Virus record (IMG/VR): IMGVR_UViG_2651869692_000002
Reading direction: 5' to 3' (one strand)
Source: a virus
Lineage: Duplodnaviria > Heunggongvirae > Uroviricota > Caudoviricetes
Length of the DNA stretch: 23,048 bases
The translations under genes were made by a program, and so were the position numbers. Under the pieces are notes generated by a model. It was not told where the DNA came from. It was given only the letters and a program-made list of their open reading frames with translations, and did no database searches. Of this stretch, positions 2,966 to 23,048 are shown piece by piece (the first letter of the stretch is position 1; every line of letters begins with the position of its first letter).

Positions 2966-3540
2966 ACCGGGCCTCCGGTTGTATCGCCGCCTTTCAGGAC
3001 GCCAGTATGCTGATGCGCATCAACCACGATCCCGTTAGAACTCATCGCTCCGCCGCCCTGAGTAACGCCACCATTGATCACCACTTCGCTGTTAATACGC
3101 GTGCACTCAGCCTCCAGCACAAACTCACTGGTTTTCAGGGTGATGTTATCGGCAGCCTCAATGACCATGGATTTGATGCCCCTGACATACCAGCGCCCGG
3201 TGGCAGGTTCGTATTCAAACCAGCCACCGTCAGGATGTTCTGTCACGCAGGCGTCCGCCGACGTCGACGGTGGTGTGAACTGATTCGAATAGATGGCGGG
3301 CAGCGCAAAAGCTGTTTCCAGATTACCGCCCATACTCAGCAGCACCACCTGCTCACCTTCCGATGGTCGCCACCATGTCCGGGCATTCCCGGCACGCAGC
3401 GTCAGCCAGCTGATCCAGTTGGTTTCAAGGTCGCCCGTTTTCACCCGGCAAAGCCAGTTTGTCCTGTCCACTTCGGTGACTACCCCAGTGCGGATCAGGT
3501 TGGTGATAAGGCGCATGATTTCGGTTAATTGTGCGTTCAT
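2962..3540 (-). CDS. V: Baseplate central spike / assembly protein (P2 gpV-like)
   Basis: 192-aa ORF; position between S and W; similarity pattern to gpV (TNW..W...RAG..RTWW.PS.GEQV). Confidence 0.8.
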   Translation of the reverse strand: MNAQLTEIMRLITNLIRTGVVTEVDRTNWLCRVKTGDLETNWISWLTLRAGNARTWWRPSEGEQVVLLSMGGNLETAFALPAIYSNQFTPPSTSADACVTEHPDGGWFEYEPATGRWYVRGIKSMVIEAADNITLKTSEFVLEAECTRINSEVVINGGVTQGGGAMSSNGIVVDAHQHTGVLKGGDTTGGPV

Positions 3541-19431: not shown

Positions 19432-19941
19432 TCACAGCAAACCGAATGACGCACCGAGGCCAGTTACAGTATCAACTGCACTTGCCATCGCAGGATTAGC
19501 CTGTAAACGGGCCTGCAATGAAACAGCCGCCAGCGCCATCAGTCGTGTTACAGAGTTAATGCTGCTGATGGCATCACGACGACCGGCACAGGTTTTTACA
19601 TCGCCAGATACCGCACCTGCAGCAACACGCCCGATCTCTGCGGTTGCACTCATGACGTAATGTGGCAGTTTCTCTTTTGCCACCTCATTAATCGGTACAC
19701 ATGGCAGACAATGAATCTGTGCCAGAAAACCATCTACCAGCGTTGAATCTTCAGTCAGATCGGTAAGCAGCCAGATTTCTGGTGCGGTTAATAAATGAGG
19801 CTGCGCTGGGTTCAGCTTGTTCCGCAGAATCTGCACATTCATGCCTGCACGTTCTGCCAGTTGCACCAGATTGTGGCGCAGTGCAAATGCACGACAGGCT
19901 TCATCAAAATGTGGATGTTTGGAAACTTGGTAATCAAACAT
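19432..19941 (-). CDS. cII: CII-like lysogeny-establishment transcription activator (phage 186 type)
   Basis: ATG at 19941 gives 169 aa, the length I recall for 186 CII; N-terminus [20 protein letters not shown]... resembles it; second gene of the rightward early operon. Confidence 0.65.
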
Positions 19942-19973
19942 GGTCAATACCTCTGATGTATTTCAGAATCGAA

Positions 19974-20195
19974 CTAATTAAGGTTTAGATTGCATTCTGA
20001 GAGCGCATCAACGGTCATGGCTGCTATGTTGATCATCACTTTTTCGCGTTTTTTATCTTTGCGCAAACGGTGACGGATAAGGCGTCCATCAGCCAACATG
20101 TCATTGATGGTATCGATGGACAGTCCTGTCAGCTCGCTATAGCGTTCAATAGTCACATGAGGCGTGGTAAGAGTGATTGAAATGTTAGGTCTCAT
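19974..20195 (-). CDS. apl: Apl/Cox-family excisionase and early-operon regulator
   Basis: 73-aa ORF, first gene divergent from the repressor; small HTH-like protein ([21 protein letters not shown]). Confidence 0.6.
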
Positions 20196-20320
20196 GATGC
20201 AACATTCCTCGTTTAATGATGATTAATCAGGACGAATACGGATCGTTTGTATTTTGTGAACACCATAAACATACGATCGCACGATGAAATCGTCAAGATA
20301 AAAGTTCACTTGGAGTGACC
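20196..20320. promoter_or_regulatory. Lysis-lysogeny switch region (face-to-face/divergent promoters and operators between apl and cI)
   Basis: 125-bp AT-rich intergenic region between divergent apl and cI; contains short inverted repeats (TTAAT-GATG-ATTAA; GTGAAC ... GTTCAC) that could be operators. Confidence 0.5.
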
Positions 20321-20890
20321 ATGAATTTGGAGAAAGGCGGACGAGGCGCTATAGAGCGCATGGTAGAAGCTTATGGATTCAAAACTCGACAGGCGTTGTG
20401 CGATCATTTAGGAATCTCTAAAAGTACACTCGCTACACGCTACATGCGTGACTCATTCCCAGCAGAATGGGTAATCCAGTGCGCCCTTGAAACGGGCACC
20501 TCGCTTAATTGGCTCACAACTGGACATGGTTCAAAGCAAACTTCAGGTAATACAAATACGATGGAAGTTGCGAAATATGTATTATCTGATGGTGCCTTGC
20601 GTGAAGACGGTTTTTATATTTTTGATAAGGGATTTCTACCCTCTACGTTTAAAAAACCTTTTGTCATCACAGATAACAATTCTGAATTTATTTGTGATAA
20701 AGAATTTGATGATATACGTGATGGTAAATGGGTAATAAGTATTGATGGCGAAATAACAATCCGCGACATTACTCGTTTACCCGGTGGAAGAATCTTCGTT
20801 GAAGGTGGAAACAGAGCCTTCGAGTGCAAGATAGAAGATGTTGAAATAATTGGAAAAATTATAAGTTTAACAATTAAGTACGTTAGGTAA
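20321..20890 (+). CDS. cI: CI immunity repressor (phage 186 type)
   Basis: ATG at 20321 with GGAG RBS (track ORF starts at an upstream GTG); EAYGF...CALETG..L.WLTTG and ITIRDITRLPG...FECKI.D motifs resemble 186 CI. Confidence 0.8.
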   Translation: MNLEKGGRGAIERMVEAYGFKTRQALCDHLGISKSTLATRYMRDSFPAEWVIQCALETGTSLNWLTTGHGSKQTSGNTNTMEVAKYVLSDGALREDGFYIFDKGFLPSTFKKPFVITDNNSEFICDKEFDDIRDGKWVISIDGEITIRDITRLPGGRIFVEGGNRAFECKIEDVEIIGKIISLTIKYVR

Positions 20891-20905
20891 TACCGGGAGG
20901 AAACT

Positions 20906-21097
20906 ATGCTTGGTAAGGTATTTTTTGTGGTTTTATCATGCTCTTTGTTATTAAACCCACTAACTACCTATGCTAAAAATTATCCTTGTTCTGGGAAAAA
21001 GGGAGGTGTCTCTCACTGTACCTCCGATGGAAAGTTCGTTTGCAATGATGGAACTATTAGTAAATCAAAAAAAATCTGTACTAAAAACTCGCGATAA
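20906..21097 (+). CDS. Small secreted cysteine-rich protein (63 aa), moron between cI and int
   Basis: Strong GGGAGG RBS; N-terminal signal peptide (hydrophobic core, probable cleavage after TYA); mature part has 4 Cys; AT-rich. Confidence 0.5.
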
Positions 21098-21283
21098 TTT
21101 TTGCTTTTATATCTGCGCCTAATATAACAATGAGCCGCAGGCTAACCGCAAAAGTCACATACTCACATAGCAAAAAATAGCCAACTTCATTATGGCTTCA
21201 GTGAGATGTATGGTCGCAAGATTTCATACATTGACACTGGTTATACATACAGTAAAAATGCTCTCTATTGGAGGGCATTTTTT

Positions 21284-22315
21284 ATGGCAGTACGAAAACT
21301 CACCACAGGAAAATGGCTTTGCGAATGTTACCCCGCCGGACGTAGTGGGCGTCGTGTGCGTAAACAATTCGCCACCAAAGGCGAAGCACTGGCTTTTGAG
21401 CGTCACACGATGGAAGAAACCGAAGCAAAGCCCTGGCTGGGCGAATCAGTAGATCGTCGAACCCTGAAAGACGTGGTTGAGCTATGGTTCAAACTACATG
21501 GTAAATCTCTGACTGCTGGGCAGCATGTCTATGACAAATTGCTGCTGATGGTTGACGCTCTGGGCAATCCCCTTGCAACCGATCTCACATCTAAAATGTT
21601 TGCCCATTATCGAGATAAACGACTGACAGGTGAGATCTACTTCAGCGAGAAATGGAAGAAAGGGGCCAGCCCGGTCACCATTAACCTGGAGCAAAGCTAT
21701 CTAAGTAGTGTTTTTAGCGAACTATCCCGCCTGGGCGAATGGTCGTATCCAAACCCACTGGAGAACATGCGAAAATTCACCATCGCAGAAAAAGAGATGG
21801 CATGGCTTACCCATGAGCAGATTGTTGAACTGCTGGATGATTGCAAACGTCAGGACCCAATTCTGGCACTGGTAGTCAAGATATGCTTAAGCACAGGCGC
21901 ACGCTGGCGAGAAGCAATAAACCTTACCCGATCACAGGTGACCAAATACCGAATTACCTTTGTAAGAACGAAGGGGAAGAAAAACAGAAGCATCCCTATC
22001 AGTAAAGAGCTTTATGAAGAGATCATGGCGCTTGATGGGTTCAATTTCTTCACAGACTGCTATTTTCAATTTTTATCCGTGATGGAAAAAACGTCTATCG
22101 TGCTCCCTCGCGGTCAACTTACACACGTTCTGCGTCATACGTTTGCGGCGCATTTCATGATGTCGGGTGGAAACATCCTTGCTTTGCAAAAAATCCTCGG
22201 ACATCACGACATAAAAATGACTATGCGTTATGCTCATCTATCACCTGATCACTTAGAGACAGCTCTTCGTTTCAATCCACTGGCAACTTTGGATGTTACT
22301 AAATCAGATTCTTAA
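21284..22315 (+). CDS. int: Tyrosine integrase (P2/186 family)
   Basis: ATG at 21284 with GGAGGG RBS (track ORF has a 26-codon upstream extension); catalytic region VLRHTFAAHFMMSGGNILALQKILGHHDIKMTMRYAHL contains the H-x-x-R and Y motifs. Confidence 0.9.
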   Translation: MAVRKLTTGKWLCECYPAGRSGRRVRKQFATKGEALAFERHTMEETEAKPWLGESVDRRTLKDVVELWFKLHGKSLTAGQHVYDKLLLMVDALGNPLATDLTSKMFAHYRDKRLTGEIYFSEKWKKGASPVTINLEQSYLSSVFSELSRLGEWSYPNPLENMRKFTIAEKEMAWLTHEQIVELLDDCKRQDPILALVVKICLSTGARWREAINLTRSQVTKYRITFVRTKGKKNRSIPISKELYEEIMALDGFNFFTDCYFQFLSVMEKTSIVLPRGQLTHVLRHTFAAHFMMSGGNILALQKILGHHDIKMTMRYAHLSPDHLETALRFNPLATLDVTKSDS

Positions 22316-22325
22316 AGGTTCAAGC

Positions 22326-23048
22326 ATGGTTAAGTTTTTGTTTCAATTCCCAATATTCGACTTCTCCTTAACATTTGATATTATCGAGACGTTAATCACT
22401 CATAGCGAATCATCAATCGCTAAGGGCATAGCAGAATATAAAGACAAAGGACCTGAAGAATATATAATTGAAATATCTCCGGAAGATGGTGTATATCAGT
22501 CAATTGATCATTACATGGGACTCACCAGCTCATCGCTAGATCTCGATGAAATGTTTTTAGAATACTACCCAAGTATTATCCGCAGGTCAGTATTCTTAAC
22601 TATATTCGGAATTTTTGAGCACGAAATAGAAAAATTCTGTAACAACTTTGCTAATAGACATCATTCTCCTATAAATGTTTCAGATCTCAAAGGAAGTGGA
22701 TTTGAGAGGAGCCATCTATTTATCAAAAAAATGATAGGGATGAAGTCAACATCCCACTATTCGAATATCAAAAAAATAACAAAATTAAGAAACAGTTGTG
22801 CGCATAATGATGCAAAATACTTAGAAAACGATGGGCAAAATATTAAAAGCATTATTGAACTTATAGAAAAATATCCTGATTTTTTTAAAAAAGATGGAAA
22901 ACAGGTCCTATTTATGGGGGGCTCGTTAAGCATGATCTTGAACTCATTCAAAGAGTATCTTTCTGATGTTGAAAGAGCCTTAGATGAATTCGAAAAACAA
23001 AGCACTAGTGGCGACAAAGTGGCGGCAGCGGTTGGCATTACCCCGTAA
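22326..23048 (+). CDS. HEPN-motif protein (candidate RNase/abortive-infection-type effector); may alternatively start at 22293
   Basis: Very AT-rich ORF directly after int; canonical HEPN R-x4-H motif (RNSCAH at 22788-22805); final ~45 nt are abruptly GC-rich. Confidence 0.5.
   Translation: MVKFLFQFPIFDFSLTFDIIETLITHSESSIAKGIAEYKDKGPEEYIIEISPEDGVYQSIDHYMGLTSSSLDLDEMFLEYYPSIIRRSVFLTIFGIFEHEIEKFCNNFANRHHSPINVSDLKGSGFERSHLFIKKMIGMKSTSHYSNIKKITKLRNSCAHNDAKYLENDGQNIKSIIELIEKYPDFFKKDGKQVLFMGGSLSMILNSFKEYLSDVERALDEFEKQSTSGDKVAAAVGITP

Follow-up and report, generated by a model that had tools for sequence, protein, structure and literature searches.

A YdcA-family mini-protein with a predicted export signal is encoded between cI and int of a 186-like prophage

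The subject of this analysis is a short gene in a 23,048-nucleotide stretch of Caudoviricetes DNA (the window; IMG/VR record IMGVR_UViG_2651869692_000002) that carries a P2/186-like E. coli prophage. The gene, a 63-codon open reading frame at 20906-21097 on the + strand (ORF63), is translated to a 63-amino-acid (aa) protein and lies between the genes for the cI repressor and the integrase (int). Family scores and codon comparisons identify ORF63 as a genuine coding gene of a catalogued family, YdcA; its anatomy and position and very probably act together as follows: an accessory gene ("moron") behind cI specifies a mini-protein of this family that is exported, cleaved, and disulfide-bonded. 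As to what this product does, the evidence is about evenly poised for the overall reading of a mini-protein that is produced along with cI and docks on polyanions or the envelope in the periplasm, with superinfection exclusion as its likeliest phenotype. ORF63 consists of the following parts:

20895-20900, + strand: Shine-Dalgarno sequence GGGAGG, by direct reading of the sequence
20906-20974, + strand: predicted Sec-type signal peptide, codons 1-23 (MLGK, hydrophobic core, NPLTTYA, with cleavage between TYA and KN), from hydropathy and the -3/-1 rule
20975-21097, + strand: mature 40-aa YdcA module and stop codon, from NF007463, PHROG 6000, PF27300, invariant columns and codon differences

The family assignment is supported by several models. 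ORF63 matched all 58 positions (1-58) of the NCBIfam model NF007463 (PRK10040.1-2) with E = 4.2e-34 and 116.1 bits, above the curated whole-protein cut-off (93 bits), and PHROG 6000, annotated "unknown function", with E = 4.6e-34. Pfam PF27300 "YdcA" is a precomputed assignment for the representative of the cluster to which ORF63 belongs (355 members on at least 1,000 contigs), and the identical protein WP_001321204.1 is named "YdcA family protein" in RefSeq. A scan with an older Pfam release returned only a sub-threshold GULLO2-like match (E = 0.07); no YdcA match was obtained there because PF27300 is newer than the release used. An NCBIfam match to lpg1681 (E = 0.11) was dismissed as insignificant. 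The UniRef cluster is labeled "Conjugal transfer protein", a label whose basis could not be traced; the conjugation hypothesis that it suggested was dropped, the Acinetobacter plasmid copy not being in a transfer operon.

As a gene, ORF63 is already known, annotated, and common. The YdcA family profile collected 451 clusters (50% identity) at E ≤ 1e-3, and more than 500 relatives are present in IMG/VR. Together with the spacer that follows it (query 20891-21225), ORF63 is present in 632 of 5,426 complete E. coli genomes (~12%), BL21 and C43(DE3) among them. The host paralogue, YdcA of E. coli K-12 (b1419), is described as having 57 aa, a signal sequence, a predicted periplasmic location, and no known function (PMC11340327). 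The two proteins share a Sec leader, a single ~35-aa four-cysteine module, and the invariant motif PCSGxKGG..HC..GKFxCxDG..S.SKK.C. They differ in subfamily, since among the models of the family (PF27300; PRK10040 as NF007462, NF007463, and NF007464; PHROG 6000) ORF63 falls in NF007463 and not in NF007462, the K-12 model, which gave it 68 bits against a cut-off of 118. They differ also in location, ORF63 belonging to a prophage immunity operon (186-like) and K-12 ydcA adjoining cybB/rydC, and in charge, ORF63 being the more cationic.

In an alignment of 25 homologues, 15 columns were invariant, including all four cysteines, while the leader varied freely. All 15 invariant residues are present in ORF63 (P27, C28, S29, K32, G33, G34, C38, F44, C46, D48, G49, S52, S54, K55, and C58), which carries the family motif P-C-S-G-x-K-G-G ... 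C ... F-x-C-x-D-G ... S-x-S-K ... C with its four cysteines. Comparison of the mature part, from PCSG onward, with that of a leader-diverged E. coli copy gave 16 identical, 17 synonymous, and 2 non-synonymous codons; with the homologue from Haemophilus phage HP2, the mature part gave 10 identical, 16 synonymous, and 7 non-synonymous codons. By this codon measure, mature ORF63 is under strong purifying selection, with the leader diverging freely.

The leader was called by a heuristic analysis of its n-, h-, and c-regions (hydropathy and the -3/-1 rule), combined with comparison with the homologues. The n-region, MLGK, contains one basic residue and is followed by a 12-residue hydrophobic core with Kyte-Doolittle values of up to 2.7; the TYA-KN junction after residue 23 is the sole site in range that is compatible with the -3/-1 (signal-peptidase-I) rule. 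The N-terminal ~23 residues of the 25 homologues are free to vary, yet they keep the same layout, in which a small-x-small site precedes the invariant mature domain. By heuristics and comparison, then, a Sec signal peptide is predicted immediately before the module, as is characteristic of YdcA. The predicted mature peptide has 40 residues, including 8 Lys, 1 Arg, and 2 Asp (net charge +7, isoelectric point 9.6), and contains C28, C38, C46, and C58, all invariant across the family alignment; a fifth cysteine, C12, is within the leader. The charge of the module across the family has a median of +3 and a range of -1 to +7.

A lipoprotein reading of ORF63 was rejected because the lipobox-like VLSC (residues 9-12), which is only 12 residues from the N-terminus, is not conserved: homologues have LLIC or LFVC at this position, or are cysteine-free. 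The Llp/Cor-type lipobox [LVI][ASTVI][GAS]C is likewise missing from the end of the ORF63 leader. The T4 Sp/Imm, T5 Llp, and phi80 Cor lipoproteins, with which ORF63 may be compared, are small exported exclusion proteins acting in the envelope.

These results bear on an earlier reading of the window, made from its sequence without database searches (the original prediction), which had proposed a 63-aa reading frame with a strong ribosome-binding site, a signal peptide, and four cysteines in the mature part. The frame is present at 20906-21097, and the family score and the skew in codon differences exclude a chance frame; the ribosome-binding site is the GGGAGG located 5 nucleotides before the ATG; the four cysteines are those that are invariant in the family; and the leader anatomy and family-wide layout fit the signal peptide, as a heuristic prediction. 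The search for homologues in other prophages that was suggested at the time detected them in prophages of E. coli, Klebsiella, and Yersinia, and also in two Haemophilus phages, HP2 and S2. The treatment of ORF63 as an orphan had to be given up, since the family to which it belongs is catalogued and widely annotated and has a host paralogue. The suggested function, lysogenic conversion or superinfection exclusion, is reasonable as a candidate role, so that the earlier interpretation is supported in part.

The fold of the module was examined next to its sequence relatives. AlphaFold2, supplied with the 25-sequence alignment, modeled ORF63 as a leader helix and a small beta-hairpin core, with a mean predicted local distance difference test score of 75 and scores of 84-92 over residues 31-60. 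In a phmmer search against the PDB, Legionella Dis2 (Lpg0823) was the sole relative (E = 3.1e-5), with both of its lobes (residues 29-72 and 89-111) aligning to ORF63. The YdcA family profile matched Dis2 with E = 1.1e-3, and Foldseek ranked Dis2 first (probability 0.98, 38% identity over 40 columns), the remaining matches being noise. Weak sequence matches in the PDB (E 0.2-2), to lectins and to type-II proteinase inhibitors of potato, were set aside as cysteine-pattern noise, and a search of viral structures in BFVD with ORF63 returned nothing at E ≤ 0.001.

Dis2 is a periplasmic protein with five disulfides that is located near the outer membrane as a 13-copy stoichiometric component of the Dot/Icm outer-membrane cap (PMC8486379), and is described in published work as Legionellales-specific and without structural relatives. 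A link between YdcA and Dis2 is apparently unnoted in the papers searchable. Dis2 (PDB 7MUC, 7MUD) is exported, disulfide-pinned, and periplasmic, and ORF63 shares with it the homology and fold of a lobe. However, Dis2 has two tandem lobes and five disulfides, whereas ORF63 has a single lobe and four cysteines, and Dis2 belongs to a type IVB secretion system, while there are no type IV secretion genes in the P2/186-like prophage locus. From the alignment of 7MUC chain AN with window positions 20975-21094, Dis2 appears to be a tandem duplication of the YdcA module, which is widespread in Proteobacteria; the four invariant cysteines of ORF63 fit the fold of one Dis2 lobe.

Further clues to function come from domain fusions. 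The YdcA leader and module are fused to a staphylococcal-type nuclease, SNase, in one of the longer family representatives (P0109), to Serratia-type Endonuclease_NS in three others (P0184, P0192, and P0185), to a PLD/Nuc-type PLDc_2 domain in P0173, and to the type VI secretion domain VasL in P0110. Some longer representatives contain two to three tandem YdcA modules. On a Citrobacter plasmid, a YdcA-module gene (L185 3426-3827) directly follows tssE in a type VI secretion cluster, beside a T5orf172/GIY-YIG protein. Since three unrelated nuclease folds, VasL, and Dis2 share periplasmic action on anionic partners or at the envelope, we infer that the YdcA module is a small, lysine-rich, disulfide-stapled docking unit.

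The genes and signals that surround ORF63 in the window are as follows:

19432-19947, - strand: CII (CP76) regulator, from the open reading frame list and family matches
19974-20195, - strand: divergent gene of 73 aa in the apl/cox position, from the open reading frame list and synteny with 186; no family match
20321-20890, + strand: cI repressor, 189 aa from the RefSeq start, with the frame opening at 20315 (Phage_CI_repr E = 2.8e-33, Phage_CI_C E = 2e-28)
21098-21225, + strand: spacer travelling with ORF63, 37% guanine plus cytosine (GC), with no convincing + strand terminator, from genome counts and a terminator scan
21231-21259, + strand: promoter-like TTGACA-17-AAAAAT within a ACATTGAC..ACTG..ACAGT element upstream of int (consensus scan, 10/12 matches)
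21254-21283, + strand: conserved hairpin AAAAATGCTCTC-TATTG-GAGGGCATTTTT, with a T-run end directly before the int ATG (RNA fold -15.9 kcal/mol)
21284-22315, + strand: tyrosine integrase, 343 aa (Int_N E = 2.7e-32, Phage_integrase E = 4e-22, PHROG 1, RefSeq "phage integrase")
22326-23048, + strand: 240-aa open reading frame after int, from the open reading frame list; weak family matches

The pR/pL switch region (20196-20320) is delimited by the gene in the apl/cox position. The cI gene stops at 20888-20890, the GGGAGG of ORF63 starts 4 nucleotides downstream, and the gap between cI and ORF63 is 15 base pairs (bp). The terminator scan detected no + strand terminator-like site before 21254, and none between cI and ORF63. 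From this anatomy, the place in the repressor transcript that the original prediction had assigned to ORF63 is upheld: the short gap to cI is free of terminator-like sites, and the hairpin comes only after ORF63, directly in front of int. Since ORF63 begins 15 bp after cI, we consider it moderately probable that both genes are transcribed together from the lysogenic promoter and that lysogens make the product. As the first terminator-like structure is the hairpin before int, a lysogen would make ORF63 continuously, with int attenuated.

The hairpin at 21254-21283 contains the int Shine-Dalgarno sequence within its 3' arm, and the folding of the region 21090-21290 gave z = -3.9. Relatives with different cargo keep the stem via compensatory changes (GCTCTC/GGAGGGC, GCCCTC/GAGGGC, GTCCTC/GAGGAC). 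The promoter-like TTGACA-17-AAAAAT element is conserved in all int-module relatives; this element and an ACTG..CAGT palindrome overlap the 5' side of the hairpin. The structure is likely an attenuator, a terminator, or a translational gate of int that would sequester its ribosome-binding site. An Rfam search of the whole window returned no family.

The GC content of ORF63 is 35%, compared with 40% for cI and 51% for the window. ORF63 is absent from the same position in the close relatives 186 and P2, and its base composition is atypical; because of the difference between 35% and 51% GC, we read it as an accessory gene, or moron, of the prophage. The original prediction that 186 and P2 have nothing at this place proved right, for cI of phage 186 ends, and its int starts, at the shared coordinate 22433, and the 115-bp C-int gap of P2 is without an annotated gene. 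On this comparison, ORF63 is an insertion relative to both phages. The whole window is ~96% identical over 82-83% of its length to Klebsiella/Escherichia Peduoviridae (KP12, 4LV2017-like phages), and the int module shared with Klebsiella phages begins only at ~21226. The 2.2-kb stretch that holds cI, ORF63, and int is 99.9% identical to the rcdA-adjacent prophage of E. coli SHP24, in which RefSeq annotates cI as "phage repressor protein CI", the ORF63 product as "YdcA family protein" (WP_001321204.1), and int as "phage integrase".

Comparison with other rcdA-integrated relatives indicates that the cI-int interval of such 186-like prophages is a variable cargo slot. Its contents there are a second CI-like protein with a KAP NTPase (E2348/69), or hypothetical proteins of 324 or 349 aa; the slot is filled with other cargo in E2348/69, EC6563, and Klebsiella 4LV2017. 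The KAP P-loop NTPase found in the slot, sometimes right after YdcA, matches the PADLOC candidate defence family PDC-S20 with E = 1e-171. The order cI-YdcA-int recurs in Yersinia prophages, and cI-YdcA-KAP NTPase-int in other Escherichia/Klebsiella prophages, whose cI is 71% identical to that of the window. By the transcript anatomy, the slot would be part of the transcription unit of the repressor and precede a conserved element by which int is probably attenuated or gated. The slot loci examined were L006 510-2976, L007 2003-2977, L008 1313-2362, and L009 and L013 6198-7529.

The same placement is found at a much greater distance. Haemophilus phages HP2 and S2, of which HP2 has a cI only 32% identical to that of the window, encode an unannotated 60-aa homologue that shares its first base with the end of the cI stop codon (a 1-nucleotide overlap) and which is followed by a gene for a secreted OB-fold protein (in HP2, of the tRNA_anti-like family, E = 3e-13), and then by int. 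A partner-gene hypothesis was tried and discarded, HP2 orf1(S) and the downstream gene in Moraxella bovoculi being unrelated (E = 1.0). Like the known morons of P2 and 186 (P2 old, tin, fun(Z), and the hotspots described by Rousset et al. 2022, PMC9122126), ORF63 is an accessory gene of atypical GC in a variable slot, and neighboring variants of the cI-int slot carry candidate defence genes. The cI-int slot is, however, not among the two P2 hotspots of the hotspot papers checked, and the P2 hotspot paper (PMC13586616) mentions neither YdcA nor the cI-int slot.

Several side observations concern the same locus. Two E. coli B derivatives, C43(DE3) (NZ_CP011938.1 871926-874563) and BL21 (NZ_CP060121.1 842739-843073), encode an identical ORF63 protein in a decayed prophage with a truncated replication endonuclease and cII pseudogenes, in which cI, ORF63, and int are intact. 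Insertion sequences (ISKpn26, IS5-like; ISKox3, ISL3-like; ISApl1, IS30-like) were observed within the cI-ORF63-int stretch of several genomes (NZ_CP061764.1, NZ_CP031134.1, NZ_CP051158.1), and in strain 730V1 such a break falls inside the ORF63 module, at about base 170 of query 20891-21225. At the prophage end, the 240-aa frame at 22326-23048 (35% GC) is beside rcdA in E. coli SHP24, and the window terminates exactly at its stop codon. It has weak matches to HEPN_RiboL-PSP (E = 0.004), Abi_2 (E = 0.04), PHROG 21382 (E = 3e-9), and PADLOC HEC-01A (E = 0.005), and is a candidate abortive-infection-type moron.

A mechanism can be proposed from these elements. In a lysogen, ORF63 would be translated from its strong ribosome-binding site on the cI-promoter transcript, and cleavage of the Sec leader would leave a 40-residue, +7, disulfide-stapled peptide in the periplasm. 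The free module would dock on a partner of negative charge in the periplasm, which could be nucleic acid, a component of the envelope, or an envelope machine; with the partner occupied, the envelope would be altered, and entry of the DNA or tail machinery of a superinfecting phage would be hindered at the periplasmic step. That ORF63 as a free docking module hinders superinfecting phage in this way is put forward with low confidence. A parallel is offered by envelope exclusion and DNA-entry blocks such as HxsA, which, like the role proposed for ORF63, involve small exported proteins that are encoded by a resident phage or defence locus and have the envelope as their site of action. For HxsA, the effector of HXS, an electrostatic interaction with incoming DNA in the periplasm has been proposed (PMC13128918). 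Neither HxsA nor the T4, T5, and phi80 proteins named above have a sequence relation to ORF63, which comes without maturation enzymes, a peptidoglycan-binding domain, HxS repeats, or a conserved lipobox.

A number of observations weigh against the docking and exclusion reading. PADLOC returned 0 families for ORF63, which has no similarity to a catalogued defence protein, and literature searches on the YdcA family, PF27300, PRK10040, and WP_001321204 returned no functional study and no expression, localisation, or phenotype data for ORF63. Fusions account for only ~6 of the 150 best family representatives. Deletion of Dis2 has only subtle effects (PMC12716638), and the structural relative therefore supplies no mechanism. 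Among species-representative YdcA loci, CI is upstream in 5/75 and Int downstream in 5/72, most loci being chromosomal and not in a prophage, and the neighbors in the 75 loci, which for the rest lie in varied chromosomal surroundings, include no recurrent partner gene; such a mostly chromosomal, partnerless family favors a general envelope role over a phage-specific one. Placement in the lysogeny module is not universal either, since in Moraxella phage Mcat17 the YdcA-family gene (L002 2938-3117) is between coat and tail genes, and in Acinetobacter phage Ab11510-phi an unannotated one (L003 ~3001-3099) precedes a DUF4236 gene, both outside the lysogeny module. Finally, because E. coli already has its own chromosomal ydcA, the prophage copy may be redundant.

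A rival explanation is one in terms of lysogen fitness, according to which an extra dose of a YdcA-type periplasmic protein aids envelope tolerance of acid or organic-acid stress, to the direct benefit of the lysogen, and exclusion is not involved. In E. coli W, deletion of ydcA causes severe sensitivity to 300 mM 3-hydroxypropionate, and acid (pH 5) induction under YdcI is cited in the same work (PMC7642389); moreover, the family loci are mostly ordinary chromosomal genes, and the invariant motif is complete in the phage and the host copies alike. However, the 3-hydroxypropionate phenotype is gone in a yieP-deleted background, its basis being unexplained (PMC7642389), and the explanation would not account for the repeated occurrence of the gene directly after cI, at a place where candidate defence genes are otherwise carried. 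We regard this explanation as unlikely.

Alternatively, the cationic module may itself bind DNA and so arrest phage, transforming, or conjugative DNA in the periplasm. The fusions to SNase, Endonuclease_NS, and PLD/Nuc-type nucleases and the net charge of +7 are consistent with such an activity, as are the secreted OB-fold product (tRNA_anti-like, E = 3e-13) of the gene downstream in HP2, the occurrence of phage copies in the naturally transformable Haemophilus, Moraxella, and Acinetobacter, and the precedent of HXS, whose periplasmic effector likely makes electrostatic contact with DNA on its way in (PMC13128918). Yet the modules attached to nucleases could equally be envelope anchors, the links to Dis2 and type VI secretion suggest protein or membrane partners, and charge across the family is only modest, with a median of +3 within the range from -1 to +7; we hold direct DNA binding to be quite unlikely as the explanation.

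The product could also be an accessory or decoy for an envelope-spanning secretion, conjugation, or pilus machine, for instance one that serves competitors as receptor or conduit, docking as Dis2 does on its outer-membrane-proximal parts and so altering it. The 13-copy presence of Dis2 in the Dot/Icm outer-membrane cap, the VasL fusion, and the YdcA-module gene after tssE on the Citrobacter plasmid point in this direction, but the window encodes no such machine, the plasmid copies inspected were not in transfer operons, and the similarity to Dis2, itself two-lobed, is weak (E 3e-5 to 1e-3); we consider this role improbable. A secreted cationic antimicrobial peptide or bacteriocin directed against non-lysogens would match a small, cationic, cysteine-stabilised product, but is highly improbable given that a Sec leader alone reaches only the periplasm in E. 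coli, that no export, lysis, or immunity gene is adjacent, and that the same species has a chromosomal paralogue. A chance reading frame in an AT-rich spacer, which the short length and 35% GC might suggest, is refuted by the score above the family cut-off, the 451 clusters, the 17:2 codon skew, and the 15 invariant columns.

We return to the reading of ORF63 as a docking mini-protein made with cI. What may be new here is the homology between YdcA and a Dis2 lobe, the fusions to nucleases and type VI secretion, the cI-adjacent placement that reaches HP2 and S2, and the hairpin before int. The interest of ORF63 rests on the unsettled function of the YdcA family, combined with purifying selection, a repressor-adjacent placement that persists at 32% cI identity, and presence in ~12% of E. 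coli. Since cI, ORF63, and int remain intact in them, the E. coli B derivatives BL21 and C43(DE3) are a ready experimental system, in which the proposed role could be tested at once. If the module does block the entry of DNA or tails, it would be among the smallest exclusion factors, and this would explain its attachment to secreted nucleases and secretion machines. In a broader form, which we hold to be quite improbable, the YdcA/Dis2 lobe would be a hitherto unrecognised periplasmic DNA- or polyanion-binding mini-domain that serves, in the immunity operons of P2/186/HP2-type prophages, as a one-gene exclusion, anti-transformation, or anti-conjugation system; in the periplasm it would trap DNA on its way in or block the conduit. 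If true, this would make it a minimal counterpart of the multi-gene HXS, and would provide a role for E. coli ydcA and Legionella Dis2.
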